Part shown: piece by piece, positions 14,192-55,978 of the stretch | Numbering within the stretch: position 1 is the first letter of the stretch | How the letters are laid out: every line of letters starts with the position of its first letter | Origin: Planctomycetota bacterium | GTDB lineage: Bacteria; Planctomycetota; UBA1135; UBA2386 | Assembly (NCBI GenBank): GCA_965223545.1 | Contig: OZ245006.1 | Location: 5,440,001-5,504,000, forward strand | Direction of reading: 5' to 3' | Length of the DNA: 64,000 nucleotides | Position numbers and translations under genes: made by a program | Notes under the pieces: model-generated | What the model saw: only the letters and a program-made list of their open reading frames with translations | Databases searched by the model: none | Told to the model about the DNA's origin: nothing

Positions 14192-16846
14192 ATGATCGTT
14201 TCCCTCTCGCGCGTCGTCACCGCCGCCTCGCTCGTCCTCGCCTCGGTGTCACCCGTGGCGCAAACTCCGGGGTGGTTCGATGCCTCTGGCCGCGTCTACC
14301 CGTGCGGTAGTCAGGGGCGCGCCACGCATCGGCCCTCGGATCACGCGGTCGCCGACGTCGACGGCGACGGCGACCTCGACGTCATCCACAGCACGTGGGA
14401 CGGCTTCTTTCCCGTCGGCGTGCCGCGGGCGGCCCTGCTGCGCAACCGCGGCGACGGTACCTACGAAGCGCCCGTTTGGCTCTCGACCGGTGGCAACACC
14501 GCTTCCGTCACCGCCGCCGACGTCAATGGTGACGGTGCGGTCGACTTGGCGTTCGGCGTATCCAACACGCTCGGCAGCGGCAACCGCGTGTTGGTCCTCC
14601 TCGGCAACGGCGACGGCACGTTCGCCAACGGCGGCCGTCATGCGTGCGGCTCCGGTCCGCTCGACCTGGCGGCGGGCGACATGGACGGCGACGGCGATGT
14701 CGACCTGGTGAGCGCCAACCTCGGCGCCGACTCCGTCACCGTGCTGCTGAACGACGGTAGCGGGCAGTTCGGCGCGCGGCGCGACGCCGGTGCGGGCGGG
14801 CGGCCGCAGTCGCTCCGGTTGGGCGACCTCGATGGCGATGGCGATCTCGACGTCGCGGTCAGTGGTGGTAGCGGCGCGCCGGTGCGGGTGTTGTTCAACG
14901 AAGGCGGCGGCCAGCTGACGCTGCGCAGCACGCCGCCCGCGGCGGTGAGCGCGCTTGCCGGCATCGCCATGGGCGACGTCGATCGCGACGGAGACCTGGA
15001 TTTGGTCTGGGGTGCGGGGGCCGCGCAGGGGCTGGTGTCTTCGTTCACCCTCTGGCGCAACGACGGTGCCGGTGGGTTCGGCGCCGGCGAGCGGCTGGCG
15101 ACCGGCCTCAGCTTTCGGGGGGCCGCGGTCGACATCGCCGACATCGATGGTGATGGGTGGCCGGACATCGCTGGCTGCGCGCTGGGCAACTTCAACGACT
15201 GGTGCTACCTGCCCGGTGACGGTGCGGGTGGGTTCCTCTCGGCGCGGATGAAGGGCAGCGCCGGCGAATACAGCACGGCCTTGGTCATTGCGGACGTCGA
15301 CCGCGATGGCGACGGCGACGTGCTGATCGGCAACGAGGGCAGCAACACGCTCTCGGTGCACGAGTTCGATTCCGGTGCATTCCGCGATCCCCCGCCGACG
15401 ACGGTGGCGCAGCTGACCGTCGACTTCGACATCGCCGACCTCGACCTCGATGGCGACCTCGACATCGTGTGTGCCGATTCGACCCTGCACCGGCTCATCA
15501 ACCGCGGCGACGGCACCTTCGAGAACTTCTCGGTGGCGCTGCGCCTCGGCCGGTTTCGCTTCGTTCGGCTCCGCGACCTCGACGGCGACGGCTATCCGGA
15601 CCTGCTCATGGTGAAGAGCTCTGCCAGTCCGCCGTACGACCTCTACACCGCGATCAACGATGGCACCGGCCGCTTCGGCGCCGTCGTGCAGTGGCAGATC
15701 CGAACGTGTGGGGGGAACGACCTCGAGACCCTCGACTGGGACGGCGATGGCGACCTCGACGTGATCGTCTCGGAGACGCTGGGTTGTCTTTCGGTGCCGT
15801 TCCAGCGGCTGTTCTACCTCGAGAACAAGGGCGATGGGACGTTCGAGCCGCCGGTGACGGAAGACAACGTGCTGTATCCGATCCGCGACCGGATGGCGGC
15901 GGCCGACTTCGATCGCGACGGGAACATGGACTTTGCCACGACGGCCAGTGGTCCCGGGCTCGCCGTACACCTGGGGCGGGGTGATGGCACCTTCGTCGGT
16001 CCGACGGCGATCGCCGTGACCAAGGCGCCGGGACCGAGTTGGCTGACCACCGCCGACATGAACCGGGATGGCGACATGGACCTGGTGTTCACCTCCGCCA
16101 TGGAGGGGACCTTCGGCTTCGATTGCGAGGTCGGGGTCTTCTTGGGCAACGGCGACGGCACCTTCGTCGAGATGGAGCCGCAGTACGGGCCCTGGTCGTT
16201 GCAGTTCCTCGCCGAGTTCAGTGTCAACACCATGGACGCGGACGGCGACGGCGTTCTGGACGTGATCGCCAGTGGCATCAGCTCCTCCGAGGTGCTGGTG
16301 TTTCGGGGAACGGGCGACGGCAACTTGCAGCCGGCGCAGCGCTACGCGATGCCTGGCGATGCGTGGCGGTCGCGTGGCGCCGACATGGACGGTGACGGCC
16401 GGGACGACCTCGTCGTTCTGGTCCACGCGTTTCCTCCGATCGGCAACGGGCAGATCGTCGTCTTGTTCGGTGGCGACGGCGAGATCTGCCAGCCCGATCT
16501 CGGCTTTGCCGGGCCGGGATCGACCCGGCTCACGGTGTGTGGCCCCGCGCTGCACCCAGGCAATGCCGCCGAGTTGCTGCTGCGCGGCGCGCCGGCCAGC
16601 GCGCCGTGTGCGCTGGGGTTCGGCTTCACCGCGACACCGACTCCGATCCTCGGCGGGACCCTGGTGCCGCTTCCGCTGGCTGTGGTGCTTCCCTCGTCGA
16701 CCGATCCAGGCGGCGCGTTGCGGCTCGCCCCGATTGCGTCCGGCGCCGGGCCGTTGGACGTGTTCGTCCAAGCGGTCGTGCTCGATGCGGGTCAGCCACG
16801 AGGACTGCAGTTCTCCAACGCGGTCCGGGTCGAGTTCCTGCCCTGA
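14192..16846 (+). CDS. secreted FG-GAP/VCBS repeat protein with the shared C-terminal domain
   Basis: Signal peptide ...SVSPVA|Q and more than ten DxDGDGDLD repeats. Ends VQAVVLD...FSNAVRVEFLP. Confidence 0.88.
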   Translation: MIVSLSRVVTAASLVLASVSPVAQTPGWFDASGRVYPCGSQGRATHRPSDHAVADVDGDGDLDVIHSTWDGFFPVGVPRAALLRNRGDGTYEAPVWLSTGGNTASVTAADVNGDGAVDLAFGVSNTLGSGNRVLVLLGNGDGTFANGGRHACGSGPLDLAAGDMDGDGDVDLVSANLGADSVTVLLNDGSGQFGARRDAGAGGRPQSLRLGDLDGDGDLDVAVSGGSGAPVRVLFNEGGGQLTLRSTPPAAVSALAGIAMGDVDRDGDLDLVWGAGAAQGLVSSFTLWRNDGAGGFGAGERLATGLSFRGAAVDIADIDGDGWPDIAGCALGNFNDWCYLPGDGAGGFLSARMKGSAGEYSTALVIADVDRDGDGDVLIGNEGSNTLSVHEFDSGAFRDPPPTTVAQLTVDFDIADLDLDGDLDIVCADSTLHRLINRGDGTFENFSVALRLGRFRFVRLRDLDGDGYPDLLMVKSSASPPYDLYTAINDGTGRFGAVVQWQIRTCGGNDLETLDWDGDGDLDVIVSETLGCLSVPFQRLFYLENKGDGTFEPPVTEDNVLYPIRDRMAAADFDRDGNMDFATTASGPGLAVHLGRGDGTFVGPTAIAVTKAPGPSWLTTADMNRDGDMDLVFTSAMEGTFGFDCEVGVFLGNGDGTFVEMEPQYGPWSLQFLAEFSVNTMDADGDGVLDVIASGISSSEVLVFRGTGDGNLQPAQRYAMPGDAWRSRGADMDGDGRDDLVVLVHAFPPIGNGQIVVLFGGDGEICQPDLGFAGPGSTRLTVCGPALHPGNAAELLLRGAPASAPCALGFGFTATPTPILGGTLVPLPLAVVLPSSTDPGGALRLAPIASGAGPLDVFVQAVVLDAGQPRGLQFSNAVRVEFLP

Positions 16847-16865
16847 CCGCGACCGCGGGGCCGAG

Positions 16866-18527: not shown

Positions 18528-18564
18528 GGCTGCAGCACACCGCGAGGAAGCCGCCGGCCGCCGC

Positions 18565-19119
18565 TCAGCTCTGGCTGCCGCTCGGCAGCATCCGGATACG
18601 GAAACGGGTCTCGCCGCTGCCGTCGTCGGGCAGGTCGGTGATCTCGACTTCGGTCTCCGTCATCTTTGCAAGCCCGCGCACCATTCCCTTGGCGAGTGGG
18701 CCGAGGCCGTCGCGCTCGGACACGTAGTGCAGCGTCATCTCGTCGCCCTCGGCATCCGAGACCCAGAACGACGGCGGCTTGTAGCCGACGAACGCCTGCG
18801 ACAGCCGCACGTGCATGTCGTCCAGGCCATGCAGGATCTCGGGCAGGGTCGAGCCCGACATGCGCAGGTGGTCGGCGAACTCGGACCGCAGCGCGAAGTC
18901 GATCCAGTACTCGCCGACTTCCTCGAGGATCTGTCCCGCCTCGACGCCGGCGCGCTCGGCGGTGGCGACCACCAGCCCGACCGAATCGGAGTCGGGATAC
19001 TGCTCCATGGCCAAGAACTCGGCCGGGCTACCGGCGGCGGAGCGCACGGCGGCAGCGCCGTCGGCGCCGAACTTGTTGGTGATGTAGTCGACGATGGCTT
19101 GGTTGACGGTTCCGTACAT
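18565..19119 (-). CDS. H-NOX heme NO-binding protein
   Basis: MYG start, YPD, proximal His (LDDMH), PPSF and the YxSxR motif (YVSER). Confidence 0.92.
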   Translation of the reverse strand: MYGTVNQAIVDYITNKFGADGAAAVRSAAGSPAEFLAMEQYPDSDSVGLVVATAERAGVEAGQILEEVGEYWIDFALRSEFADHLRMSGSTLPEILHGLDDMHVRLSQAFVGYKPPSFWVSDAEGDEMTLHYVSERDGLGPLAKGMVRGLAKMTETEVEITDLPDDGSGETRFRIRMLPSGSQS

Positions 19120-19280
19120 GGGCGAGCCTCGATGGGTGCGGGCCGGCCCATTCCGGCCCGGCGTCTTCATCGGCGTGAGGCGCTCGTGAGCTGGAGGGCG
19201 GCGGCCCACGTCTGGGGGGTTCTCCGCAGGCGGCCCTGCTGAGGTAGCCTGTCGGTGTCGCGTTTCGCGGCAGTGCGGTC

Positions 19281-22887: not shown

Positions 22888-22929
22888 AATAGACCACACT
22901 TGTAGTCAAGACTACAAGTGTGGTCTATT
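22888..22929. promoter_or_regulatory. perfect 20-bp inverted repeat made of two BlaI/MecI/CopY-type boxes
   Basis: AATAGACCACACTTGTAGTC-AA-GACTACAAGTGTGGTCTATT, 8 bp upstream of the repressor ATG. Each arm resembles TACA-NN-TGTA. Confidence 0.88.
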
Positions 22930-27759: not shown

Positions 27760-29856
27760 ATGCTCAGCCCCTCTGCTCTGTCGCGGTTGGCACCGCTTGC
27801 CCTCCCCGCTCTTCTCGCCGGACTCTTCAGGGCGCAAGACCCCCCGCCCCCTCCGGGCGGTTTTCCGGTGCTCGAGCAGCTCGACCAGCTGCTGACCTAT
27901 GCCGATGGCTACCGCACGCGCTACGACCTTCGGCTGCCGGACCCGGCGCAGATCGCGCCGCCGGCGGGTGGTTGGCCGTGCATCGCGCTGGTGCACGGCT
28001 TCAGCGGGGCACGCAGCCTGTTTGCCTTGACCGGCGAGGGCCGCCGCCATGCCGAGCGCGGCTACATCACCGTGGCCTACGACGTGCGCGGGCAGGGCCA
28101 GGCCCGGGGCCTCAACCCCAACCGCGGCACGCTGGTCACGGGCGCGTTCGAGCGCGCCGATTTGGCCGAGTTGTTCCACCAGATCGAGGCGCGGCTCGGA
28201 TCGGTCATGGACTTCGGCCGCTTGGTGGTGATGGGGACCTCGCAGGGGGGTGACCACGCGTGGGCGGCAGCGGCGATGAGCGGCCGGCTGATGCCGCAGC
28301 CGCGCGGGTCGATCACGACCTTTCCGGTGATCGCCGCAGTGTGCCCGCGCGCCGGCTCGCCCGACCTCGCCGAGGTGTGGAATCCCGATGGCGCCGCCTT
28401 TGCCGGCAACTTCACGCGCGGTTGGTTCCAGTCGAACGCGATCTACGAGCCCTCGTTTCAGGCTCAGCTGCAGCAGCAGTTCCTGGCGCAGGACTTCGCC
28501 GGCCTCGCCAACCTGATGCGCAACGACCCGTGGCGTCAGGACGTTGCCCTGTTGCCGCAGAGCCGCGTGCCGGTGTTCGTCAACTACTCGTGGGATGATG
28601 CCTTCGTGCCGGAGAACATCGCCCTCGACGGTCTCGCGCTACTGCCGCCGAGCACGCCGCGGCTCGCGTACCTGAGCACCGGAATCCACGGCACCGCGAC
28701 CAACCAGCTCGAAGCGGCGACCACCGACCGGCTGACCGAGCGCTGGCTCGACCGCATGGTCAAGGGCTTCGCCGACGAGATCGATCGCCAGCCGCCGTAC
28801 CGCGCGGCGGTGATCCCCGCCAACCCGGCGGCCGCGGTTGCCGCCAACAGCGTGTGGCAGCTGCGCGACATGGATGCGTTTCCCGGCACCGGCGTCGCTC
28901 CGACAGTGCTCTACCTGCGCGCGGGCGGAAGACTGTTGGCGACTCCGCCGGCTGCTGCCGAGGCGCCCGACCGCGTCCGGCACCAGGTCGCCGCGGGCTT
29001 CGACCCGCAGGCGTGGGTGCAGACGAGCAATCAAACGGCGGCGGTCTTCGGCGGCGTGCCCTTCGACTCGGTGAGCTATCGTGGCGACCCGCTACCGGCG
29101 CCGGTGGAGCTCTTGGGGCGGGGGCGGATCCGGCTGCACGTCACCTCGAACGCGGCCAACCTCCAGCTCCACGTCGCGCTGTTCGACGAGACCCCTGCTG
29201 GCGAGCGTCGCTACATCACCGGCGGCTACCGCTGCATTCGCGGCCGCGCGCCGGGCACCGCCGCCTACGACTTGGAGACGCGCGGCACCGCTTACGTGAT
29301 TCCGGCGGGTCACCGGTGGGTGGTGGCGGTCGAGAACCACACCTGGCATCGGCCGGTCGGGATCGACGAGCTGCGCACCGTGCCCTACTTCGAGAGCTAC
29401 GTGTTCGACTGCGAGCACACCAACCTGCTGCCGTCGTCGGTTGCGCTGCCGCTCACCGCGCCACGGCTGGGTGCGCGCAGCGCCTCGGTCGCGCTGTCGG
29501 CGGCGGCTGGCGGGACCATCGACGTGCCCCTCGACGGCTCGGTGAGCCGCGCCGCCGACCCCTATGTCGTCCTCGTCGGTCTGTCGGGGACCGTGCCGGG
29601 CTTCGGTTTTGCCGGCCAGTCGGTCCCGCTCAACGTGGACGCCCTCACGCAGCTGGCGTTGACGGCGCCGACCACTCCGCCGTTCGCCGGCTTCGTCGGC
29701 GTGCTGGATGGCGCTGGGAGGGCGACGGCGCGACTGGCGGCTGCGCCGGGCCTTCTCGTGCCCGTCGCTGGCGGCAGACTGTCGTTCTGTGCTGGAGTGT
29801 TCGGCGGCTCGGGATTGGCGCTGTCGGCGGCGAGCCAAGTCGACGTCACGCCGTAA
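27760..29856 (+). CDS. secreted CocE/NonD (peptidase S15-like) serine hydrolase with C-terminal extension
   Basis: Signal ...GLFRA|Q, YDVRGQG, GTSQGG nucleophile, and a PepX-C-like beta domain (ELLGRGRIRL). Confidence 0.82.
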   Translation: MLSPSALSRLAPLALPALLAGLFRAQDPPPPPGGFPVLEQLDQLLTYADGYRTRYDLRLPDPAQIAPPAGGWPCIALVHGFSGARSLFALTGEGRRHAERGYITVAYDVRGQGQARGLNPNRGTLVTGAFERADLAELFHQIEARLGSVMDFGRLVVMGTSQGGDHAWAAAAMSGRLMPQPRGSITTFPVIAAVCPRAGSPDLAEVWNPDGAAFAGNFTRGWFQSNAIYEPSFQAQLQQQFLAQDFAGLANLMRNDPWRQDVALLPQSRVPVFVNYSWDDAFVPENIALDGLALLPPSTPRLAYLSTGIHGTATNQLEAATTDRLTERWLDRMVKGFADEIDRQPPYRAAVIPANPAAAVAANSVWQLRDMDAFPGTGVAPTVLYLRAGGRLLATPPAAAEAPDRVRHQVAAGFDPQAWVQTSNQTAAVFGGVPFDSVSYRGDPLPAPVELLGRGRIRLHVTSNAANLQLHVALFDETPAGERRYITGGYRCIRGRAPGTAAYDLETRGTAYVIPAGHRWVVAVENHTWHRPVGIDELRTVPYFESYVFDCEHTNLLPSSVALPLTAPRLGARSASVALSAAAGGTIDVPLDGSVSRAADPYVVLVGLSGTVPGFGFAGQSVPLNVDALTQLALTAPTTPPFAGFVGVLDGAGRATARLAAAPGLLVPVAGGRLSFCAGVFGGSGLALSAASQVDVTP

Positions 29857-36046: not shown

Positions 36047-37069
36047 ATGATGTCCATGCCCCGCACCGCCCTGCTCGCCGCCGCGCTCCTCGCGGTGCCG
36101 TGTCAGGCGCAGACGAACTTCTTGACCAACCCCGGCTTCGAGAGCGGCTTCTCGGGCTGGGGGATGTTCGGCAACGTCGCTTCGCAGACCGCCAACCCGC
36201 CGCAGTTCACGCCGCGCACCGGCAATGGCCTGGCCTCGCTGGCCGGCCAGGGCGGTGCCTTCAACGTCAGCGGCATCTTCCAGAGCTTCCCGGCGAGCCC
36301 CGGCGATCAGTTCACCCTGGATGCCTACTCGCGGCATTGGGCCGGCGATCCGCTGATCGGCGCCGGTCCGCCCAACGACAACTGGGCGATCATGAAGATG
36401 GCGTTCTTCGACGTCTCCAACAACGAGATCGGCGGCGTCGAGGCGACGATCCTGGACGGCAACTCGCCGGTGGACGTCTGGATCGACAACCCCGCGATCA
36501 TGGGTACCGCGCCCGCCGGGACCGTCACCGTGCAGGCGTTCGTCATGTTCTTGCAGCCCGCGGCCGAGCTCGGGACCGCGCTCGTCGACGACCTGTTCTT
36601 CACCGGCCCTGCGCGCAACGCGCCGTATCCCGGCACCAACGAGGACCTGCTGCTGACCACCGGCGTCGGCCCCGGGCCGACCACGGGCGGTACCGGCAAC
36701 TACATCAAGACCGCCAACGCAGGTGACCTGCTCACCTGCAACGTGCTGTCGCCGGGCAACACCTACGACATGGCGCCGTACTTCCTGCTCGGCCAGGGAT
36801 TCGCGACCGGCAACCCGCCGCAGCCCAGCATCTTCTTCCCGGCCCTGCACTTCGACATTCGCCTGCCGGTCCTCGTGCTGGTCAACGGCGGTCTCGGTGG
36901 TCCACTCGGACCGCCGCGCATCGGCCCGCTGCAGGGCACCTCGACCTACTACACCGCGCCGGCCGGCTTCGGAGGCTCCAGCATCATGCTGCAGGCCGTG
37001 GTCATCGACCCCAACGCCGCCAACGGGATCTTCGCCGCCAGTGACGGCTACGAGATCCAGTTCAACTAG
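36047..37069 (+). CDS. secreted CBM-like (NPGFE jelly-roll) protein, paralog 1
   Basis: Signal ...VPCQA|Q and NFLTNPGFESG. C-terminal domain ends LQAVVIDP...SDGYEIQF. Confidence 0.7.
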   Translation: MMSMPRTALLAAALLAVPCQAQTNFLTNPGFESGFSGWGMFGNVASQTANPPQFTPRTGNGLASLAGQGGAFNVSGIFQSFPASPGDQFTLDAYSRHWAGDPLIGAGPPNDNWAIMKMAFFDVSNNEIGGVEATILDGNSPVDVWIDNPAIMGTAPAGTVTVQAFVMFLQPAAELGTALVDDLFFTGPARNAPYPGTNEDLLLTTGVGPGPTTGGTGNYIKTANAGDLLTCNVLSPGNTYDMAPYFLLGQGFATGNPPQPSIFFPALHFDIRLPVLVLVNGGLGGPLGPPRIGPLQGTSTYYTAPAGFGGSSIMLQAVVIDPNAANGIFAASDGYEIQFN

Positions 37070-37104: not shown

Positions 37105-38124
37105 ATGCAGCTCACGATTCGTACCGCGTTCCTCACGGCCGCCCTGCTGGCGCTGCCGTGCCACGCGCAGACCAACATTCTCCGCAACAGTAGCTTCGAG
37201 GGCGGCGGCCTCGCCGGCTGGAACGTCTTCGGCAACGTCTTCGCCGAGAGCGGCAAGCCCGGCATCGTGCCGCGCACCGGCTCCACGCTGGCCAAGATGT
37301 TCGGTCAGTTCACCGGCTCCTTCAACGTCGGCGGCATCTTCCAGAGCTTCCCCGCCGCACCGGGTGACACCTTCACCATGGACTGCTGGTCGCGCCACTA
37401 CAGCGGCGATCCGCTGATCGGTGCCGGTCCGCCCAACGACAACTGGATGGTGATGAAGATCGCCTTCTTCGATGCGACCGGGGCCGAGATCACCGGCACC
37501 GAGGCGACGATCTTGGACGGCACGTCTCCGACCGATGTCTGGATCAACAACGCGCCGATCATGGCGACCGCGCCGGCGGCGACGGTTTCGGTGCAAGCGT
37601 TGATCCTCTTCCTGCAGCCGGCCGTGGATGGTGGCGCTGGTCAGGTCGACGACATCTTCTTCACCGGCGGCCCCGACAACCCTCCCTATCCCGGCACCAG
37701 CGAAGACCTGGTGTTGACCACCGGTGTGGGGCCGGGTGGCACGTCGGGCGGCAACGGCAACTACATCAAGCAAGCGTTCGCCGGCGACCTGATCGAGTGC
37801 AACGTCGCGTCGCCCAACGGCACCTACGCGCTGGCGCCGTACATCATGTTCGCGCAGGGTTTCGTCACCGGCAACCCACCGCAGCCGCTCGTGCTGCCGT
37901 CGCTGTATCTCGACCTCAGCAAGCCGATCATCCTGCTGGTGACCGGCAGTGGGCTGCCGCCGCTGGGTGCGGCGCTGATCGGCCCGAACGGCTCGTCGAC
38001 CTTCTATGCCGTGCCCGCTGGGTTGACTGGCAACAGTGTCATCGTGCAAGCGCTGGTCTCGGACATGAGCGCCGCCAACGGTCGCTACGCGGCGACCGAC
38101 GCCTACGAGTTCGAGTTCAAGTAA
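37105..38124 (+). CDS. secreted CBM-like protein, paralog 2 (tandem duplicate)
   Basis: Collinear with 36047..37069, with shared blocks GIFQSFPA, GDPLIGAGPPNDNW and YPGT.EDL. Confidence 0.75.
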   Translation: MQLTIRTAFLTAALLALPCHAQTNILRNSSFEGGGLAGWNVFGNVFAESGKPGIVPRTGSTLAKMFGQFTGSFNVGGIFQSFPAAPGDTFTMDCWSRHYSGDPLIGAGPPNDNWMVMKIAFFDATGAEITGTEATILDGTSPTDVWINNAPIMATAPAATVSVQALILFLQPAVDGGAGQVDDIFFTGGPDNPPYPGTSEDLVLTTGVGPGGTSGGNGNYIKQAFAGDLIECNVASPNGTYALAPYIMFAQGFVTGNPPQPLVLPSLYLDLSKPIILLVTGSGLPPLGAALIGPNGSSTFYAVPAGLTGNSVIVQALVSDMSAANGRYAATDAYEFEFK

Positions 38125-46204: not shown

Positions 46205-47755
46205 TCAGCGCAGCTGCAACTGCAGTGCGTTGGCAAGGCCGATCGGCTGGGTCGCGCTCGGCTGGCCATCGAGCAGCAGCCCCTGCACGTAGAACACGGC
46301 GCCGGTGAGGGCCGGTGAGTTGGGGATCGCGAGCACCGCGCTGGCGGGGTTGCCGGGGCCGCCGAACGGCGTCGTGCCGGCGACGATCGCCGGCGGAGGC
46401 GCCAACGACAGCAGCAGCTCGCCCGCCGGCCCCTGCATGCCGAGCCCCTGGACGGCGACGCCGCAGGGGAACGCCGGTGTCGGCTGGCCGCCCACCGCCA
46501 AGAACGGTTGCGCCCCGGCGGTTTGGCTGCCGGTGGGGTTGTCGATCGCGAAGGTCAGCGCGGCGCCGGGCTGCGGCGTGCCGGCCGCCAGCTGCATGCT
46601 GCCGTCGGGGTTGATGCCGCAGCCTCCGGGAAACGCGCCGACCGGCGCGAAGCGGAAGTCCGAGATGATGACTTCGGCGGTCTGGCCGTTGCTCGGGCCG
46701 CCGCCGCCGTTGATCCACAGGTTGAAGCGGAACTGCTCGCGGCCGGCCGGGGGCACCGACAGGAAGCGCAGCGGCTGGTGCCGGAACGTCCAGCGATGGA
46801 CTTCGCTGCCCGCCGGGATCGAATACGGAGCGTGCCGGCCGCGGGCGACGGCGAACTCGATCTGGGAAGGCTCCCAGGTGAAGAAGCGGGTCAGCGTCGG
46901 CGCACCGGCGAGGTCGGGCGTCACGTAGCGGGAGAGCGCGCCGGCGTTGGTGAACGGCTGCACCACGCACTGCGAGTTGGTCAAGCTGGCGGGGTTGCCC
47001 CAGCGCGAGTCCTCGAAGTCGATTTCGCGGTAGGGCCACTCCGGGATCGTCGTGTCATCGCCGTACGGGTCCCAAGTGAAGGCACCGAAGGTGAGGAAGT
47101 GGTCGAGGTCCTCGACCTCCGACTCGGTCGTGAACCAGTACGTGCCGTAGCCGAGCGACTCCTGCAGCACCACTTCCGTGCATGTCCAGCCGCTGCGGGT
47201 GCGGCGCACGGTCAGGTGCAGCCGGCCTTGCGCATCGACCCAAACGTCGCCGGGTTGGCTCGAGAACAGATTGCCGCCGGGGCCGACCGGCAGGTTGGCT
47301 TGCTTGACGTGCCACGTGCGGCCGGCGAAGTCCACCGTGCGCCCGGTGCGCGTGCGATAGGTCAAAGCGAGGCTCTGCAGCGACGCGGGCACCTGACCGC
47401 TGCCGGCGGCGAGTGGTGCGATGACGCCGGGCCCGAGCAGCGCGGCGCAGTAGATCGTCGCGAATGCGTCGACGCCGCCGGTGACCACGTTGGTCGAGAA
47501 CGTGCCGTTGGCCTGGATCGGGATGTTGGGATTGGCGCCGCCGGGCTTGCTCCACCAGCCGGCGCCGTCGATGTAGATGTAGACGGCGACGGCATGCGTC
47601 GCGGGATTGACACCGCTGACCGAGCCGAACAATCCTCCCGGTGAGCCGAAGGCGGGCACGCCGGTGATCGAGATGGACGGCTGCGCGGCCGCGGTGGCCG
47701 CGAGGACGGCGGTCGCGAAGAATGGTGTTCGGAGACGAGGCACGCAGGGAATCAT
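46205..47755 (-). CDS. secreted GH16-like protein with the shared C-terminal domain
   Basis: VWVDAQGRLHL, SLGYGTY and an ExDxE motif (REIDFEDSRWG). Confidence 0.72.
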   Translation of the reverse strand: MIPCVPRLRTPFFATAVLAATAAAQPSISITGVPAFGSPGGLFGSVSGVNPATHAVAVYIYIDGAGWWSKPGGANPNIPIQANGTFSTNVVTGGVDAFATIYCAALLGPGVIAPLAAGSGQVPASLQSLALTYRTRTGRTVDFAGRTWHVKQANLPVGPGGNLFSSQPGDVWVDAQGRLHLTVRRTRSGWTCTEVVLQESLGYGTYWFTTESEVEDLDHFLTFGAFTWDPYGDDTTIPEWPYREIDFEDSRWGNPASLTNSQCVVQPFTNAGALSRYVTPDLAGAPTLTRFFTWEPSQIEFAVARGRHAPYSIPAGSEVHRWTFRHQPLRFLSVPPAGREQFRFNLWINGGGGPSNGQTAEVIISDFRFAPVGAFPGGCGINPDGSMQLAAGTPQPGAALTFAIDNPTGSQTAGAQPFLAVGGQPTPAFPCGVAVQGLGMQGPAGELLLSLAPPPAIVAGTTPFGGPGNPASAVLAIPNSPALTGAVFYVQGLLLDGQPSATQPIGLANALQLQLR

Positions 47756-47768
47756 AGCGCCGGCCGCG

Positions 47769-49040
47769 TCACCGCATGCCGATGGTCACGTCGAGCGCGT
47801 TGGTCAGCTGCACGCCGGCGATGTCGACCGCGAACGCCTGCGCGCACAGGGTGCCGCCGGCCAGTGCGCAGCGCGGCGGGATCGGCAGCGCGAAGGGGTT
47901 GCCCGCCGGCACGGCGACGATCAGGGCCGGCGTCGGGCTGCACAGCAGCGTGCCCCACGGCGTCGGTGCGTTGGTCGTGCCCGGCGACAGCAAGAGCCAG
48001 TCGGTGGCCGCGGTCGGGGCGAACGCCGCGTGATCGACCCACGGATTCCAGACCGCGCCGATCTCGGGCGGCGTCGTCCCCGGGCGCAGCGCGGTCGGGT
48101 TGGGTGGTGTCCCGGCGCGCACCAGCTGGGCTGCGGCGAACGGCCCCCCAAAGAGGCAGTCGGCCCAGGCCGGCTGGTCGACGAAGGGGTTGCGGTTGCG
48201 CTGGAATCCGAACACCACGTCGTTGCGCCGCCGCTCGAACGCATCGACCGGATCGGCGCGGTGCCAAGCCAGCAGTGTGCTGCGCAACCCGAAGTAGGCG
48301 GTGGTCAAGTTCTGGCCGGTCTGCGAGGCGGCGATCGCGACCTTGTCGTCGCTGACGATGAGATCGGGCTCGACCGCGCCGGTGCTGCCGTGGCGGCCGC
48401 CCTCGTAGCGCACGTCCATGTAGAACACCGCGCGGGCGACGTCGCCGCGCCGGTCGCGCCACTGCTGCCAGACCCCGCCGACCGAGGAGCCGGAGTACCA
48501 GTTGCTGTTGCCGGGGTAGACGCCCGCGCCGCCGCCCTGGCCGTTGTTGTTCAGCGTCGGTCGCTCGCTGCACGCCGCGGTGCACTGCTCGTACAGCCGG
48601 CTGCCGCGGGTGCCGTTGTAGCCGATGTCGCTCAGCATCAGCGCGTGGCAATCGGTGAACGGGTAGTTGTTGGTGACCAGGTTGGGGAAGCCGTAGCTGC
48701 GCGGCCAGATGTGATCGCGGTCGTAGAACGTGTTGCCGCCGCGCTGCTTGGGGTAGCTGGCGTTGCGGTTCACGTCGATGATGTTGAGCGCGTTGCCGGG
48801 GTCTTGCTGCGCGGAGGCCAGGATGTCCCAGGTGTCCGTGCTGCCCGCGGTGTACGGAAACCAGGTGTGGTCGTCGATCGCCGCGTGCAGCGAGGCGCGC
48901 AGCGCGGCGATGCTCGACTCGTCGATCCCCGCGTAGTAGCCCGCGGGCTGGGCGACGAGAGGACTTGCGGCGAGCACGGCGAAGAGCGCGGCGTTGGCGC
49001 GGCGGGCGATGAGGGCGGAGTTCGCTCTTGGGCGCGGCAT
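47769..49040 (-). CDS. secreted endonuclease I / extracellular nuclease family protein with the shared C-terminal domain
   Basis: RDHIWPRSYG, RGDVARAVFYMDVRY, WHRADPVDAFERRRN, QRNRNPFVD. Confidence 0.9.
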   Translation of the reverse strand: MPRPRANSALIARRANAALFAVLAASPLVAQPAGYYAGIDESSIAALRASLHAAIDDHTWFPYTAGSTDTWDILASAQQDPGNALNIIDVNRNASYPKQRGGNTFYDRDHIWPRSYGFPNLVTNNYPFTDCHALMLSDIGYNGTRGSRLYEQCTAACSERPTLNNNGQGGGAGVYPGNSNWYSGSSVGGVWQQWRDRRGDVARAVFYMDVRYEGGRHGSTGAVEPDLIVSDDKVAIAASQTGQNLTTAYFGLRSTLLAWHRADPVDAFERRRNDVVFGFQRNRNPFVDQPAWADCLFGGPFAAAQLVRAGTPPNPTALRPGTTPPEIGAVWNPWVDHAAFAPTAATDWLLLSPGTTNAPTPWGTLLCSPTPALIVAVPAGNPFALPIPPRCALAGGTLCAQAFAVDIAGVQLTNALDVTIGMR

Positions 49041-49120
49041 GGGGCGGCGATCTTCGCGGGTCCGCGCGCGCTTGCAAAGGGGGCCGTGGTAGCGTGGAGG
49101 CCCGGCCACAGGCCTTCGCC

Positions 49121-50218
49121 ATGCAGATCGGCACGATCCAAGTCGACGCCCCGTTCTTCCAAGCCGCCCTCAGCGGCTACAGCGACTACGCCATGCGCGC
49201 GGTGGCTCGGGCCCACGGCGCGCCGCTCGCGCTGCACGAGGTGATCGTCGACCGGCTGGTGCTGCAGGCCGGGGTCGAGCGCCGGCGCGCGCTGGCCGTG
49301 CGCGACGACGACCACCCGGTCGGCGGTCAGCTCATGGGCGCCGAGCCCGCCGCCTTCGGCAAGGCTGCCGCGGCGATGGTCGAGGCCGGCTACGACTTCG
49401 TCGACGTCAACTTCGGCTGCCCCGTGCCCAAAGTGCTCGGCCGCTGCCGCGGCGGCTTCCTGCTGGGCGAGCCGCCGACCGCGCTGCGCATCGTCGATGC
49501 CGTGCTGGACGCCGCGGCCGGTCGCGTGCCGGTGACGCTGAAGATGCGCCGCGGCATGGACGCTTCGCCTGGGGCCGAAGCCGCCTTCTTTGAGATCCTC
49601 GATGGCGCGTTCGCGCGAGGCGTCGCGGCGATCACCGTGCACGGCCGCAGCGTGCGCCAGCGCTACCGGGGGCCGAGCGATTGGGGTTTTCTCACGCGCG
49701 CCGTGCGCCACGCCGGCAGCCATCCGGTCTTCGGCAGTGGCGACGTGTTCGGACCGTTCGCCGTGCAGCGCATGCTGGCAGAGACCGGGGTCGCCGGGGT
49801 CTCGGTGGCGCGCGGGTGCATCGGCAATCCGTTCGTGTTTGGGCAGGCGCGGGCGCTGCTGGGTGGCGGCGCGCCGCAGAAGCCGACGCTCGCGCAACAG
49901 CGCGCGGCGATCGAGCAGCACTGGCGCGTCGTGCAGGCGATTTACGCCGAGCGGCGGCGCGTGGGTGCGCTGCGCCGGCACGGGATCAAGTACGCGCGCC
50001 TGCACCCCGAGCCGGTGTGGGCGCGGGATCGGTGGGTGAGTGTGCGGGGTGGCGATGCGCTCGGTCCGGTGTTGAGGGAGTGCTACGACGAGTCGCGGTT
50101 TGGCAGGGGTGGGGGTCCGTTGTCCGTGGACATGGCGGGGGACCATGCTGGGTACTGCGGTGGAGAGGCGCCGGCCGTGCGGTCCGCAGGCGGTTCGGTT
50201 CGTGCAGAATTCAGTTGA
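49121..50218 (+). CDS. dus: tRNA-dihydrouridine synthase (DusB-like)
   Basis: GGQLMG, DVNFGCP, VTLKMRRG, TVHGR, SGDV, VARGCIGNP. Confidence 0.92.
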   Translation: MQIGTIQVDAPFFQAALSGYSDYAMRAVARAHGAPLALHEVIVDRLVLQAGVERRRALAVRDDDHPVGGQLMGAEPAAFGKAAAAMVEAGYDFVDVNFGCPVPKVLGRCRGGFLLGEPPTALRIVDAVLDAAAGRVPVTLKMRRGMDASPGAEAAFFEILDGAFARGVAAITVHGRSVRQRYRGPSDWGFLTRAVRHAGSHPVFGSGDVFGPFAVQRMLAETGVAGVSVARGCIGNPFVFGQARALLGGGAPQKPTLAQQRAAIEQHWRVVQAIYAERRRVGALRRHGIKYARLHPEPVWARDRWVSVRGGDALGPVLRECYDESRFGRGGGPLSVDMAGDHAGYCGGEAPAVRSAGGSVRAEFS

Positions 50219-50276
50219 GCACGGTGGTGGAGCGTTGCGTTGTGCTTTCCCTGCTCGTTCGTGACACGCGCCCGGT

Positions 50277-53200
50277 TCAGAGCCCGAGGGTGGTCCAGAG
50301 GGTCGGTGACAGATCGAGGGCCGCGGTGCCGGGGCTGCGGCCGTGAACCGTTTGCCAAGCCAAGGTGACGCCCTGCAGCGACGGCGCCGCGGGCACGCGG
50401 GCCGACAAACTCCAAGCCGATCCACTCAGCGTCAGCGGGACCGGCACGATCGTCTTGGACAAGTCAATGTACGTGATGCAACCGTTGCCTAGGTGGCGGC
50501 TCGCGCCGCGTAGCCCGAGGACCAGGGCAGAAGGCACGCGCGCGGCTCCGCTGTCTCCGCTCAGCGTCATAGCGGTGCCCAGAACCGCATCCGTCGCGTG
50601 GAGTTCGGGGAACGCGGCCGTTCCGCTGCATCCTTGGCCCATCGAGCGCGAACTCGCGCCGGGGGCTAGCCGGAACGGCTCGACTCCGTGTATGGAACCC
50701 GCGGCTGGAAAGACCAGCTGGTCGCCGGCCAGGTGAAAGCCGGGGGCGTAGCTCGGTGACCCCAGGGCTGCCACCTCCACGGTCCCCATCGTGGTTCCGT
50801 CGGTGCGCCAGACGCGTCCGGCGGCGAAGAAGAACACGAACCGCGAGCCGGTTGCCGCGAACCCGTGCGGCAGCGAGCTTCCTGGTCCGGGGACCAGGTC
50901 GGCGAGCCTGCGGGTGCCGGCTGTGGTGCCGTCCGTAATCCAGGGTTCGACGCCGGTCTGGCCGTCACCGGCGTTGAAGACGGCGCCTCGGTCGATCGTG
51001 GCATGGGCGACCACTGGCCTGGCAACGAAAGCGCTGGCACCCTGCAGCGCGAACGTGCCGGCGACGGTGCCGTCCGACCGCCAGAGTTTGTCGTCGACGC
51101 TGAAGTAAGCGAGGCCGTGGCTCACGAACAACGACCTGAACGACGGCGTCGACTGTTGGCTTGTCAGGTCCGCGAGACTGAACGTGCTTCCCGCGGTGCC
51201 ACCGGTGACCCAGGGTTCGAGGCCGGTCATACCGTCATCGGCGAAGAACACAACGCGGTCGCCCAGCGACAAGGGCGTACTCCGTCTCTTCATGCTACTG
51301 GTGGCGCCCGGGTTCAGGTCCAAGAGCCGAGCGGTTCCCCCTGTGGTGCCGTCGGAGATCCAGGGTTCACGGCCGCCTGTGTCGATGGCTGAAAAGAACA
51401 CGCGTTTGCCGAGTCGCACGCCGTCCCGCGGATCGCTCGAGGCGATCCCGGGAAACAGGTCCGCGAGCAACCGCGTCCCGGTGGGGGTGCCGTCCGTGGC
51501 CCACAGCTCCCGGCCGAGATTGCCGGTGGACGGGGACACAGTCAGTGCTGTGTAGAGTAGTCGTGGCCCGACCCGGGCGAGTTCGACCGGAATACTGCCG
51601 GTGGGGCCGGCCGCCGCGTCGGCCAGAAGCCGGGTGCCGGCCGGTGTGCCGTCGGTGGAATAGAGTTCGATCCCGAGCCCGGTCGCGTTGGCGCGGAACA
51701 GGGCGCGGTTGCCCAGGGCCATAGCGAACATTTCCACGTAGGACGATGCGCTGCCCGGATTGATATCCGCTAGCTGCAGCGTCCCCTGCGTTGTACCGTC
51801 CGTAACCCAGGGTTCCGTTCCGCTTTGGCGGGTGGAGAGGCCCATCACCACCCGGTCGCCGAGAACTGTTCCGCTACTGACGGAAATGTTGGCGGTACCG
51901 GGTTCCAAGTCGGCGATCTTTCGGGTCCCCGAGGTCGTGCCATCGGTGGTCCAGAGTTCGTGACCGCTCCCGTCATCGGCGACGAACACCGGTTCTGGGG
52001 CGGCAAAGAACCGGTGTGGCAATGAGTCTCGGGTGGCGCCCGGAATGTTCGGGGTTACGTCGGCGAGCAGTGTTGGGCCCGGCTGGGTGCCGTCGGAGCA
52101 CCAGAGCTCCCGGCCAATAGTCGGATCCAGCGCACCGAAAGCGACCTTGCCGCTGGCCAAGGCAATAATGTCCGCCGGGTCACTGCTGAGTGGCCCAGGA
52201 GCTAGGTCGGTCACGCGGCGGGCGTTGCCTGGCTGACCGTTGGTCGTCCAGAGCTCGACGCCGCTTACGCCGTCGTCGGCGGCGACAAACAGTTGGCCGG
52301 CAGCGACCGTCATCGGTCCAACCGTCATCGGTCCAATCGGCAGCGATAGGGCCAGTGTCTCCAGCTGCTGCGTTCCCGCCGCGGTGCCGTCGCTGGCCCA
52401 GAGCCGATAGGTGCCTGGCAGGCCTACGGCGAACAACAACGTTGTGCCGAACGGAGTCAGACGCTCCGGAACTCCTCCTGAGAGTGGGGCGACCATCCGC
52501 GTGCCCTGTGTCGTTCCGTCGCTGGTCCAAAGGTCGAAGCGGCTCGACACAGTGGTGCCGGCAAAGTAGAGCTGGGAACCGGCCAGCACGAGTTCCGCGG
52601 GGAACCTCGTGGTGTTGGCAGAGAACACCGAGACGACGCCTGTTCCGGATGAAGTGCCGTCGGTGCTCCAAAGTGAGCGCACATAGCCCCCGTCGGCTAA
52701 GAAGAACACTGTGCTCCCACGGCGGACGAGTGCGTACGATCGATTGGTCGGCTGGATAGTGTTCGGAACCGCGATGCGCACGGTCCCGCCGGCGGTGCCG
52801 TCCGTGCGCCAAAGCTCGAGTTGGCTCCCGCCCGTGGTGGTAAACACTGCGAAAGACCCGAGCGACGTAATGTCGGCGCTGGGGAGAGTGTTGCTGAAAC
52901 CGATCTGCCGCACCATCGTCGATCCGGCCGCGGTGCCGTCAGAGAACCAGAGCTGCCGTCCGGTTTGCACCAACTCACCAAAGAACAAGACGCCCGTCCC
53001 AAACGGGGTGAGGTACATCCCGGAGACTGCGCTGTTCCGATCCAGATCGGCGACCCGTAGCGTGCCCGGGCCGGTGCCGTCCGTGACCCAGAGATCCCGG
53101 CTGTTGTTGGCCTCTCTTGCCGAGAAGAACACGCGCCCGTTGGCGATCGTGAACTCGGCCGGGTCGGAATCTGCGGATCCTGGATTCAGATCCAGCACAA

Positions 53201-53450
53201 GCCGGGCGGCTCCTCCCGTCGCCGGGACTGCGAACAGCTCGCGTCCGGTGCTCGGCGTCGTTCCGGTGAAGAGGATCGTGTTGCCGAACTCGATCCCTGC
53301 GCTCGCGCGGGAGCTGGGGATCGGGGGTGGCGTCGTGTTGATGTCGAGTAGAAGACCCGGGGGCGCTGTGCTCTGCGCACCGATCGCGTCGGAAGACGCG
53401 ATCAGCGCGGCCCACGTCATGATGAAAGCCGGTGACACTACTCCTCGCAT
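50277..53450 (-). CDS. secreted ELWxxDGT repeat protein with the shared C-terminal domain
   Basis: More than 15 E(L/P)WxxDGT-type repeats and signal ...DAIGA|Q. Codon usage is less GC-biased than the flanks. Confidence 0.9.
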   Translation of the reverse strand: MRGVVSPAFIMTWAALIASSDAIGAQSTAPPGLLLDINTTPPPIPSSRASAGIEFGNTILFTGTTPSTGRELFAVPATGGAARLVLDLNPGSADSDPAEFTIANGRVFFSAREANNSRDLWVTDGTGPGTLRVADLDRNSAVSGMYLTPFGTGVLFFGELVQTGRQLWFSDGTAAGSTMVRQIGFSNTLPSADITSLGSFAVFTTTGGSQLELWRTDGTAGGTVRIAVPNTIQPTNRSYALVRRGSTVFFLADGGYVRSLWSTDGTSSGTGVVSVFSANTTRFPAELVLAGSQLYFAGTTVSSRFDLWTSDGTTQGTRMVAPLSGGVPERLTPFGTTLLFAVGLPGTYRLWASDGTAAGTQQLETLALSLPIGPMTVGPMTVAAGQLFVAADDGVSGVELWTTNGQPGNARRVTDLAPGPLSSDPADIIALASGKVAFGALDPTIGRELWCSDGTQPGPTLLADVTPNIPGATRDSLPHRFFAAPEPVFVADDGSGHELWTTDGTTSGTRKIADLEPGTANISVSSGTVLGDRVVMGLSTRQSGTEPWVTDGTTQGTLQLADINPGSASSYVEMFAMALGNRALFRANATGLGIELYSTDGTPAGTRLLADAAAGPTGSIPVELARVGPRLLYTALTVSPSTGNLGRELWATDGTPTGTRLLADLFPGIASSDPRDGVRLGKRVFFSAIDTGGREPWISDGTTGGTARLLDLNPGATSSMKRRSTPLSLGDRVVFFADDGMTGLEPWVTGGTAGSTFSLADLTSQQSTPSFRSLFVSHGLAYFSVDDKLWRSDGTVAGTFALQGASAFVARPVVAHATIDRGAVFNAGDGQTGVEPWITDGTTAGTRRLADLVPGPGSSLPHGFAATGSRFVFFFAAGRVWRTDGTTMGTVEVAALGSPSYAPGFHLAGDQLVFPAAGSIHGVEPFRLAPGASSRSMGQGCSGTAAFPELHATDAVLGTAMTLSGDSGAARVPSALVLGLRGASRHLGNGCITYIDLSKTIVPVPLTLSGSAWSLSARVPAAPSLQGVTLAWQTVHGRSPGTAALDLSPTLWTTLGL

Positions 53451-53528
53451 GCCGTGCGAGTATAGCGGGCATCCCGCGCAAACTGTTGGGGCACATGCTG
53501 CGGACCGGCCCTCCAGTGGGTGTCGGGG

Positions 53529-53638
53529 GCCGCGGTAGCTTCTTGCTGAGCGAGCCGCAGAACGCGCTGCGAATCGTCGACGCCGTGCTCGACGCCGCAG
53601 CCGGCAGCGTGCCGGTGACGCTGAAGATGCGCCGCGGC
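53529..53638 (+). pseudogene. 110-bp internal fragment of dus (copy of 49446..49555)
   Basis: 98/110 nt identical by manual alignment. Encodes RGSFLLSEPQNALRIVDAVLDAAAGSVPVTLKMRRG. Confidence 0.9.
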
Positions 53639-53641
53639 GTG

Positions 53642-54163
53642 GGGTGCTCCTCCGACTTGACGGGGAATAACTCTCGAGTACAAAGCGGCGGCCCCATCCC
53701 GTAACCTACTGCCATCAAACAACCAAGCGAGCCACGGGAGGGGCCTCGCGATGCAGATGATAGCGGACGCCATCGGGCGGTGCAGGCAAGTTCTCGAGGA
53801 CTTGGTCAATACGAGCGGCGAGCTCGATGCGACGACCTTCCGGACGTCGGTCGAGGCGATCAAGGACGCGGTCAACGACCTCGGGCGCGAGGCGCTGAAG
53901 GCCGTGGTCGCGCGGGCCGAATGCTCGGCGGACATCATCGTCCGCGATGGCGAGCCGTATCGCTTCAAGCAGACGGTCGCGAAGGGGTGGCTGACCCCGT
54001 GCGGATTGACGGACGTAGCGCGACGGTTCTACCAGCGAGACTCCGGCGGTCGAGGGTTCGCGCCGATCGACGTTGCCTGCGGCATGGTCGGTCGGTTCAT
54101 GACGGCCGATGTCGAGGAGCTGTCTGCAATCTCCGCCGCACTCGGGACGCCAGCAGAGGCATC
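53642..54163 (+). mobile_element. truncated IS remnant (ISKra4/ISLre2-like transposase N-terminus)
   Basis: ORF from 53751 with WLTPCGLTDVARRFYQ...FAPID, resembling the T.FG...R..Y...PLD pattern. Possible left end GGGTG at about 53642. No DDE core remains. Confidence 0.6.
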
Positions 54164-54686
54164 CGTCACCGTACTGCAGCGTGGACGCGGCTGACAGCTT
54201 CGCCGGACCGGCAGGAGTGCCGGCGGGAACGCCTGGCTGGTCCCACTCGAGCGAGGCAATGACGCCGCGGTGGGAGAGCACGTAGATCGGCTTGAGGAAC
54301 GGTCCGCCGGTGCTGCGCATGCGGGGTTGGACCGACAACGATGTCGATGATGCCGGTCTCCTGGTGGTAGGCGAGCGGGTTCAGGTTGCCGTCCAGCACG
54401 ACGATCATGCCGTGGACGGTGGCGAACACGATCTCCGCGGCCACGTCGTTGTCGAGGTTGTCGACCGCGATGCGCGGGTTGGCTGTGGCTGCGGCGATGA
54501 TCTCGTCGCCGGGGCCGTTGGGGTGGGGGTCGCCGGCGGCCAGCCCCGAGACGCCATGACCCGGGGATTGGCTCTGCACGACGTCGGAGCGGGTGATCAG
54601 GCCCTGCGCGCTTCCGACGTAGATCGAAGCCTTGCCGTCGCCGTCGCAGTCCGTGACCACCATGGACTCATCGTAGCCGAACCACG
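54164..54686 (-). pseudogene. degenerate orphan copy of an internal segment (57879..58547) of the large downstream-coordinate gene
   Basis: Near-identical blocks with deletions of 105, 39 and 2 bp (523 vs 669 bp). Confidence 0.92.
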
Positions 54687-54802
54687 CGGCCTCGGGGGAT
54701 CGGGGTTGCGCCTGTCCCTGCGGCTCTACGCTGCAGTTCAGCCTTTTGAACTCGCGCAGCCGCGAGATCGGAGGGGCTTGTAGCGTTGCGTAAGCGGCCT
54801 CG

Positions 54803-55978
54803 TCAAAGCGAGATCGTGTAGTTCAGCATCGCGACCGTCGGCGCGGTGATCTGCATCGGCCCAGTTGGCGGCAGCACGACGGATTGAAAGGACAGCAGGA
54901 CATTGCTGAAGCTGGGCGGCAGGAAGCTCGACGTCGGCATCACGGCGCTGGACTGGAACCAGAGCCCCGGCGACGGCACGGTCGCGGTGTGAATCAGGAC
55001 GAGAAGTCTGGGGTCAAGCCAGATCTCATCCCAGCCGGCGAACGAGGGGATCGGCGTGGGATAGCTGGGTGGAGGCAGGCTGGCAAAGGTCATGGCCACT
55101 GACCCGTTCGGTGCCCAGACCGTTGAGCGGAGGGAGTAGACTCCGCTCGCCCATGACGGCTCCACGATGGTTGCGGCCAAGGGCTTCTCTACGATCCGCA
55201 TGGTACCCTGCACGCGGTTGGGCGGGAACAGGGGGTCGTATGTCAGAGTCCCGCCGGAGCCGGTGATGTCCGTGGAGGTGGCGCAGGAGCCGGTACTACC
55301 CCGAACGTAGGAGCCGGAAGTGGCGAGGATGATGTCTGAGTTGGTTGCCTGGATTCCGGGCCGCGGGTTGGGGCAGATGTTCGCAGTCACGACCGGTGTA
55401 CTGATCAGTGCCACTCGCGACCCGACAGCAGTCAGTGGAATTCGAGGATGTTTGTACCTGGCGACCATTTGTCCCTGAACGTGAAGTACGTTGCTTTGCT
55501 CGACGTGCATCACCTGCGTGAGACAGTCGACGAGCGAGACGTTCTGAGATCGTCTGATGTCCAGGACGCCGACCGCGGCCTCGAATGGAAACCAGCGAAG
55601 GCTGTTCGTCCTCAACCGCTGTAGATGCACCGGACCCGCGCAGTCGTACACCTGGATGACATGGTCTTGCCAAGTACCGTTCGAGAGTCCCCATGCGACG
55701 AAGCGTTCGTTCGATGGGATGTTCTGAATCGTGACCGGCGACAGTGTTTGGAGTGGACCGACCATGGTCACGCCCTTGTCAACCGTGAACGCTGAGTAAG
55801 GAGTCGGACTGGGCCGGGCGAAGATGGTATCGCCAGCGCTCGCTGCGGCGATAGCCTGAGGGATGTCGGTAAAGTGACTGCCCGGGCGTGCCTGGCTGTC
55901 GACGATCCAAGTAGCTTGGGCACCTAGCGGCGCCGCACACGCGAGCAGAACTAATGGTCTCAAAAGTGCATGGAGCAT
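54803..55978 (-). CDS. secreted hypothetical protein (beta-helix-like N-terminus) with a divergent shared C-terminal domain
   Basis: Signal ...APLGA|Q and WIVD...FTDIPQAIAAASAGDTI. Ends LSFQSVVL...ITAPTVAML. Confidence 0.7.
   Translation of the reverse strand: MLHALLRPLVLLACAAPLGAQATWIVDSQARPGSHFTDIPQAIAAASAGDTIFARPSPTPYSAFTVDKGVTMVGPLQTLSPVTIQNIPSNERFVAWGLSNGTWQDHVIQVYDCAGPVHLQRLRTNSLRWFPFEAAVGVLDIRRSQNVSLVDCLTQVMHVEQSNVLHVQGQMVARYKHPRIPLTAVGSRVALISTPVVTANICPNPRPGIQATNSDIILATSGSYVRGSTGSCATSTDITGSGGTLTYDPLFPPNRVQGTMRIVEKPLAATIVEPSWASGVYSLRSTVWAPNGSVAMTFASLPPPSYPTPIPSFAGWDEIWLDPRLLVLIHTATVPSPGLWFQSSAVMPTSSFLPPSFSNVLLSFQSVVLPPTGPMQITAPTVAMLNYTISL

Follow-up and report, generated by a model that had tools for sequence, protein, structure and literature searches.

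Why do secreted proteins of unrelated function that are encoded close to each other end in similar tails? This question is raised by a 64,000-nucleotide stretch of DNA from a Planctomycetota bacterium (bases 5,440,001-5,504,000 of contig OZ245006.1, assembly GCA_965223545.1), referred to below as the window; coordinates count from its first base unless a genome position is given. The host genome (8.1 Mb in two contigs, 91% complete, ~70% G+C) encodes proteins whose named relatives are from Planctomycetota, including Engelhardtia mirabilis. A first-pass annotation of the window, made from the letters alone, had claimed a shared C-terminal domain on seven to eight unrelated secreted proteins and had proposed that it is a lineage-specific export or anchoring signal. 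Here we show that the domain is a real, uncatalogued, and very large family of the shared-tail kind. With respect to its function, we see an even chance that it is an uncleaved docking handle, which would hold proteins exported by the type II secretion system (T2SS) on a lineage-specific surface partner.

Homology of the tails and number of carriers

All 12 tail motifs that the annotation had quoted were found in the reading frames given for them; they belong to eight open reading frames (ORFs) and lie 1-23 residues ahead of the stop codon. Pairwise BLASTP comparisons among the eight tails were significant only for the tandem pair encoded at 36047 and 37105, so that these tails by themselves are no proof of kinship. 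The objection that the tails do not align thus holds for pairwise comparisons outside this pair; it fails for genome-wide profiles, which do prove kinship.

The profiles were searched against all 69,420 six-frame ORFs of the genome and an equal number of reversed sequences as decoys. Three independent seeds, the tails of the endonuclease, FG-GAP, and ELWxxDGT proteins, retrieved 309, 293, and 349 proteins, respectively, with pairwise overlaps of 264-305 and no reversed decoy. Their union comprises 357 proteins, 316 of which have the domain at most 15 residues from the end. The four main-type members of the window are still matched if they are excluded from the profile (ELWxxDGT, E = 5.8e-13; FG-GAP, 1.6e-10; endonuclease, 2.3e-10; the protein encoded at 46205, 8.4e-7). 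At E<10, the main profile misses the tails of the CocE hydrolase, the 36047/37105 pair, and the protein encoded at 54803. These four tails belong to three small subtypes, in which they are recovered with leave-one-out E values of 3e-25 (CocE), 2e-29 and 6e-25 (the pair), and 2e-39 (54803). Profile-profile comparison connects all three subtypes to the main profile over 56-102 columns, with scores of 36.9 for CocE (shuffled maximum 14.4), 38.6 for the pair, and 44.6 for 54803 (shuffled maximum 12.9); the controls stayed at or below 15.3 with 25 column shuffles per subtype and at or below 13.7 with reversed alignments.

In this way, 404 carriers were found in the genome, 365 of the main type and 24, 9, and 6 in the three subtypes. 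A further 16 weaker carriers were matched at E<0.05, in a round without any decoy at E<=0.1. Judged by these sequence profiles, about 420 proteins of the planctomycete carry the shared domain, the copies being ~26% identical to one another. Among 5,851 script-called genes, the 398 that encode carriers represent ~7% of the genes and 9.5% of the coding residues. The claim of a shared C-terminal domain on unrelated secreted proteins is therefore confirmed by genome-wide profiles with zero decoys. The profile search that the annotation had proposed, extended to related genomes, gave many matches, mostly terminal and, in the host genome, mostly with signal peptides.

Sequence searches of 63 members against Pfam, NCBIfam, and PDB returned no match. 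The domain thus corresponds to no characterized family in these collections, and the statement that it is neither PEP-CTERM nor a catalogued C-terminal domain (CTD) from type IX secretion systems (T9SS) stands. No description was found in the literature searched, subscription papers and preprint supplements lying outside that coverage; the available parts of 10.1101/817700 and 10.64898/2026.10.26.761892 do not contain the terms 'secretion' or 'C-terminal'.

Distribution of the domain

At E<=0.001, the domain profile matched 35,943 clusters of a protein-cluster library, of which 14,896 also reached 1e-10; the atlas neighbors of the domain are Planctomycetota clusters. Of the 150 best library hits, 148 are terminal, many of them being fragments. 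The domain was present in 121 of 121 genomes of the host class and in 32 of 151 Planctomycetota genomes. The latter distribution is nearly all-or-none, since 31 genomes have 9 to at least 27 matches and one has a single match. These numbers bear out the view that the tail is lineage-specific. One match was found in Engelhardtia mirabilis, which belongs to the shape-shifting Saltatorellus clade and has been cultured, and therefore ideas on the function of the domain are testable at the bench.

The phylum of an Acidobacteriota record yielded the domain in 3 of 101 genomes, with 1-3 copies each. Two genomes of this phylum encode di-haem peroxidases that hold the domain internally; in one of them it is followed by DUF4214, as if the host may have added an end of its own.

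Fold and conserved residues

The domain is ~125 residues long. A structure model of the copy in the ELWxxDGT protein, built from 63 tails (predicted local distance difference test, pLDDT, 92.7), is all-beta with ten strands, including edge strands. The predicted fold is an immunoglobulin (Ig)-like sandwich, Ig/Fn3-like in a generic sense. Its best structural match has a Z score of 8.3, and the CTD of PorU (residues 1054-1157; Z 7.2, root-mean-square deviation (rmsd) 2.9, 91 aligned residues) scores on a par with dozens of unrelated Ig folds. Foldseek returned no match at E<=0.001 for the model; its weak top rows include lipid-binding ML-type proteins (E 0.007-0.013, TM <=0.4).

A cysteine pair is a variable feature of the domain: among 283 copies that cover both positions, which are paralogues and not independent of each other, 197 have both cysteines, 77 have neither, and nine have a single one. 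This pattern fits a disulfide, and one disulfide is predicted in the domain. A Gln in the second-last strand is near-invariant (345/363). Moreover, the domain is proline-rich and weakly charged, with 8.7% charged residues compared to 16.8% in the cargo (294 proteins), and never occurs twice in a protein (363 proteins).

Some of these properties would suit a self-assembling building block of a surface coat or filament that displays fused cargo. The model has edge strands, there are ~420 carriers, and five genes were found by eye to encode a signal peptide, the domain, and nothing else. Weak matches to fimbrial families also point in this direction, but they are at chance level (PF00419, E 0.085, and StfE, E 0.12, each in 1 of 63 members and far below the cut-offs). 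The sequence identity between the copies would be low for co-assembling subunits, and the domain-only genes are scattered singletons for which no usher-like or operon context was seen. Co-folding of two domain copies gave a score of 0.01 relative to a mark of 0.42, which speaks neither for nor against pairing. Overall, we consider a coat or filament highly improbable.

The beta-sandwich fold, the weak ML-type rows, the low charge, and the free placement in the chain (see below) could alternatively indicate a module that, as carbohydrate-binding modules do, binds an outside substrate, such as a polysaccharide, a lipid, a particle, or the surface of prey, without being an envelope anchor. But binding modules often repeat, whereas this domain is never found in tandem. 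The nucleases, peroxidases, deiminases, and propellers among its cargo share no common substrate, and neither its presence on 7% of the genes nor its occurrence in every genome of the class tested would be expected for such a module. Substrate binding as the main role is therefore very unlikely in our view.

Cargo and export features of the carriers

The 376 cargo regions fell into 130 BLAST clusters, of which 89 contain a single member and six combine different domain subtypes on the same cargo. According to a permissive custom rule, signal-peptide-like N-termini are present in 343 of 398 carriers compared to 1851 of 4019 (46%) other genes, and many of the 55 carriers without such a call look by eye like wrong start calls. 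None of the 398 carriers has two or more membrane helices (other genes, 405/4019), a helix past residue 45 is predicted in only ten, and a strict lipobox was found in three (other genes, 150/4019). Since lipid anchors and membrane helices are rare, most carriers are without a known tether.

A small-subtype domain is also present on a five-haem cytochrome that weakly resembles MtrC/MtrF (G000:C1:243622-246390); in another family, the homologues of this protein have the main-type domain.

Position of the domain in the chain

The expectation that the domain is always C-terminal did not hold. While 363 of the 404 copies end within 15 residues of the C-terminus, 41 have more than 15 residues behind them (26 copies at 16-80 and 15 beyond 80). 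In three paralogues of ~800 residues, the domain directly follows the signal peptide, and the same N-terminal placement is seen in a 47-50% identical orthologue from another family of the order.

In one paralogous family, the domain is followed by 30-45 residues; among the 26 members flagged, two turned out by eye to have a plain tail at the end. We aligned 19 members of this family and folded one of them (pLDDT 89.2). Two jelly-roll chains, 3no8_B (Z 7.7, rmsd 3.3, 130 aligned residues, range 3-345) and 7tok_B (Z 7.6, rmsd 2.9, 116 aligned residues, range 27-345), match the model over almost its whole length, whereas Ig chains align only to residues 178-312. Because the jelly-roll spans residues 1-345 and the Ig fold only 178-312, we predict that the extra strands complete the N-terminal domain and that the shared domain is inserted in it. 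According to this model, the shared domain would sit inside a jelly-roll domain in 24 paralogues. N-terminal, internal, inserted, and stand-alone copies argue against a cleaved signal of the T9SS type.

Three paralogues that combine an N-terminal copy of the shared domain with a PETase-like hydrolase region are encoded at G000:C1:6484799, 5008654, and 7601490. A conserved gene of ~215 residues follows each of them.

Comparison with known sorting and docking systems

The closest working analogy is provided by the CTDs of type B T9SS cargo from Bacteroidota; according to PMC9143113, PorP-like proteins bind and thereby hold this cargo without the involvement of PorU. Like the T9SS CTDs, the planctomycete domain, predicted to be a beta-sandwich, is one shared unit on many unrelated proteins with a Sec signal peptide, and it has hundreds of carriers and a lineage-restricted distribution. 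Unlike them, it is longer, has a cysteine pair and a near-invariant Gln, is weakly charged, and also occurs at N-terminal, internal, inserted, and stand-alone positions. None of the 63 members matched any CTD model of Pfam or NCBIfam at E<=1.

No T9SS components were detected in the genome either. The models for SprA, PorN/GldN, PorP, and the C25 peptidase PorU (TIGR04189, TIGR03523, PF11751, and PF01364) were silent in the 91% complete host as well as in all 14 control genomes. The best host match to PorV had 24 bits, the cut-off being 90, and here the control was matched in Bacteroides, so that four of the five controls were silent. Likewise, the exosortase model PF09721 had no match in the host and was matched in one control genome. 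These searches bear on the idea of a cleaved sorting signal: a sortase-like enzyme would remove it and attach the cargo to the envelope by a covalent link, in the manner of PorU and type A T9SS cargo. The mostly terminal position, an Ig-like fold as in the CTD of PorU (at a Z score shared with generic Ig folds), and cargo types that overlap with those known for T9SS would all agree with such a signal. But apart from the lack of enzyme matches in these searches, N-terminal, internal, and inserted copies could not be removed without losing or splitting the cargo, which makes a cleaved signal scarcely probable. N-terminal and inserted copies also speak against cleavage followed by attachment to LPS, as in type A. 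As to the original proposal of an export or anchoring signal, a module for anchoring or docking agrees better with the data than a sorting signal that is cut off.

A second analogy is suggested by homologues of the endonuclease I carrier. The ends of 14 such proteins from other genomes vary with the lineage. Four of them, all from Planctomycetota, have this domain or a variant of it: one a main-type tail (strong), one an internal copy of the no-Gln type (weak), and two a related variant (one weak, one by eye). At the same place, three have dockerin-like ends (by eye; no Pfam hit), one has a GlyGly-CTERM above the cut-off, and six have other or short ends. Five of the source genomes were tested; the four whose homologues have other ends contain no domain copy, the fifth contains 22. 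For genome-wide comparisons, a tail-negative set of 42 genomes was formed from 41 of the 119 zero-match genomes and the single-match genome. Dockerin expansions (11-57 matches) were found in 3 of these 42 and in 0 of 31 tail-positive genomes, while PF00404 has no match in the host genome. The exchange with dockerin-like tails in the same slot points to attachment.

Dockerins are helical, calcium-binding repeats and are not cleaved. Like a dockerin tail, the domain is present as one module per secreted protein, mostly at the end, and on endonuclease I homologues of other Planctomycetota, dockerin-like tails take the slot of the domain (by eye). Unlike dockerins, it is all-beta in the model, and no cohesin-like partner was identified. 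By analogy, the domain would work like a type B T9SS CTD or a dockerin, while belonging to neither family. Dockerin-rich giant proteins, as found in Omnitrophota, are treated in passages of 10.1101/2023.11.21.568195.

GlyGly-CTERM/rhombosortase tags consist of a short motif, a helix, and a basic cluster. The same holds for PEP-CTERM/exosortase tags, which, according to PMC1569441, are numerous in a genome if present. The domain resembles both in being a many-to-one terminal tag on unrelated Sec cargo, and GlyGly-CTERM also in the slot filled on one endonuclease homologue. In contrast to these tags, it is a folded 125-residue unit without a membrane helix and without a match to their models.

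Search for the export machinery

As the annotation had stated, the window contains no export or anchoring machinery for the tail. The host genome encodes six secretins. A gspD-E-F-G cluster begins with one of them and includes three additional pseudopilin-like genes; a weak GspK match is located elsewhere. The N-terminal part of this GspD is closely matched in 29 of the 30 tail-positive genomes and 2 of the 42 tail-negative ones. Outside the host's own class, GspD separates the two groups with an area under the curve of 0.95, compared to 0.70 for GyrB (49 full-length matches).

The association of this GspD type with the domain would also be expected if the domain were mainly an export address, as a folded module recognized by the T2SS or an outer-membrane machine, with the cargo then released or held by other means. 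This is how T9SS CTDs act, according to PMC9143113, and the single copy per protein, the terminal position of 363 of 404 copies, the unrelated cargo, and the nearly all-or-none distribution agree with it. But the five proteins that consist of the domain alone would then lack any cargo to be delivered, the slot exchange with dockerin-like tails points to attachment, and the GspD pattern may reflect kinship. In addition, the cargo of type II systems is not known to share an appended signal or domain. An export address as the main function is therefore unlikely, in our estimate.

Two short tandem secretins of ~470 residues, which lack Secretin_N repeats, are encoded beside a weak GspK match (G000:C1:1170056-1174644). 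They were rejected as candidate machinery: matches were found in 7 of 30 tail-positive genomes, two of them strong, and in none of the 42 tail-negative ones, and the strong matches are confined to the family. At another locus (G000:C1:7078860-7090901), two secretins flank two TPR-like and ExbB-ExbD-ExbD-like genes (by eye), with an actin-like gene adjoining. The TPR gene of this twin-secretin locus decays too fast to show a distribution. In five genomes with a minimal repertoire (30 loci), no tail-bearing protein that resembles a processing enzyme was common to all.

A proposed docking handle for type II cargo

If the domain is an uncleaved docking handle, its action can be pictured as follows. 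Most carriers have a signal peptide in front, none has more than one main-type domain, which is mostly at the end, and lipid or membrane anchors are rare, as seen in the sequences. After the presumed Sec export, folding is predicted to take place in the periplasm with one disulfide. The folded protein would then pass the type II secretin encoded by the genome. Retention could come about if the weakly charged, proline-rich domain bound non-covalently to an outer-membrane protein, a lipid, or a polymer.

A number of observations weigh against this docking handle. No docking partner was found, and the carriers could stay in the periplasm. The fold, as modelled, is generic and says nothing on function, and 363 of 404 copies are terminal, as expected of a signal. 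With regard to the secretin, the threshold of the GspD split was chosen after seeing the data, and the split is open to explanation by kinship: GyrB leans the same way, and an unrelated TPR protein also matched tail-positive genomes only (7/30 versus 0/42). One 96% complete genome (G044) has the GspD type without the tail, and the Pfam profile of GspK does not separate the groups (17/30 tail-positive, 29/42 tail-negative). The dockerin complementarity rests on three genomes. Finally, the predicted insertion into a jelly-roll rests on one model, and a profile of the extra strands gave no significant match (best E 0.2) in three paralogues whose tails are terminal.

A wider proposal goes beyond the docking handle, and since the chances are against it, we put it forward only tentatively. 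In deep-branching Planctomycetota, a single insertable Ig-like handle, present on as many as 7% of the genes, could route folded proteins through a dedicated type II secretin and also dock them uncleaved on a new envelope receptor. Such a surface-display system, so far undescribed, would be a counterpart of the T9SS made of different parts.

With its ~36,000 clusters, this uncatalogued domain labels what is probably the surface proteome of entire classes of largely uncultured Planctomycetota. Should it address or anchor type II cargo, it would provide a shared appended signal to a system that is not known to have any, and we would see by what means these cells equip their surface in the absence of T9SS, sortases, and lipid anchors. 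Whatever the mechanism, the domain profile allows annotators to predict exported proteins in these genomes.

The carrier genes of the window and their surroundings

The window contains eight carriers, compared to a genome mean of 3.2 per 64 kb, and all eight start with a signal-peptide-like stretch (by eye). Four are encoded on the plus strand. The FG-GAP repeat protein (14192..16846; 884 amino acids with a signal peptide; PF13517, E 1.6e-84) has a main-type domain at ~16496-16843. The CocE/NonD-like hydrolase (27760..29856; ~698 amino acids, the start being inferred from the signal peptide; TIGR00976, E 4e-12, below the cut-off) ends in the divergent no-Gln subtype (~29431-29853), which gave 30 hits when seeded by this tail. 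The tandem pair encodes paralogous secreted-type proteins of 340 (36047..37069) and 339 amino acids (37105..38124); their domains (~36620-37066 and ~37684-38121) belong to the same small subtype, the tails being 58% identical. The cargo of the first has only a sub-cut-off NTTRR-F1 match.

The other four are encoded on the minus strand. A secreted-type protein of 516 amino acids (46205..47755), whose cargo has no Pfam or PDB match, carries a main-type domain with both cysteines (~46208-46648). It is followed by the Endonuclease I family protein (47769..49040; 423 amino acids; PF04231, E 6e-27; main-type domain at ~47772-48107) and the ELWxxDGT repeat protein (50277..53450; 1057 amino acids; TIGR04534, E 1.5e-160; main-type domain at ~50280-50669). 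The last carrier, a secreted-type protein of 391 amino acids with no cargo family named (54803..55978), has the third divergent subtype at ~54806-55252. Pfam or NCBIfam thus back the cargo labels FG-GAP, CocE/NonD, endonuclease I, and ELWxxDGT, while 'GH16-like' for the 46205 protein and 'CBM-like' for the tandem pair found no support in Pfam or PDB sequences.

A 114-base segment (53529-53642) is an 89% identical copy of 49446-49559, which is part of the dus gene (49094-50218, PF01207). The copy sits 4 kb downstream of dus, beyond the ELWxxDGT gene, and is possibly the scar of an insertion at dus. At 54164-54686 and 57879-58547, a decayed partial duplicate is made up of three pieces, 88-95% identical, of the gene at 55981-59424. 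This gene (minus strand, 1147 residues) encodes a weakly hydrolase-like start and propeller-like repeats, without the shared domain. The G+C content is lower (0.65-0.66) across 52-60 kb of the window.

An Rfam scan of the window found no family. The gene at 2996-6883 (minus strand) encodes RTX calcium-binding repeats (PF00353, 10 stretches) without the shared domain; its product is likely exported by a different route. Between 34406 and 46192, what looks by eye like a ROK-type regulator gene lies opposite the tandem pair of carriers; next come genes for a sugar transporter and a GH16 protein (39783-40967, PF00722) and two further genes of the secreted type. This stretch is likely a sugar-use locus.

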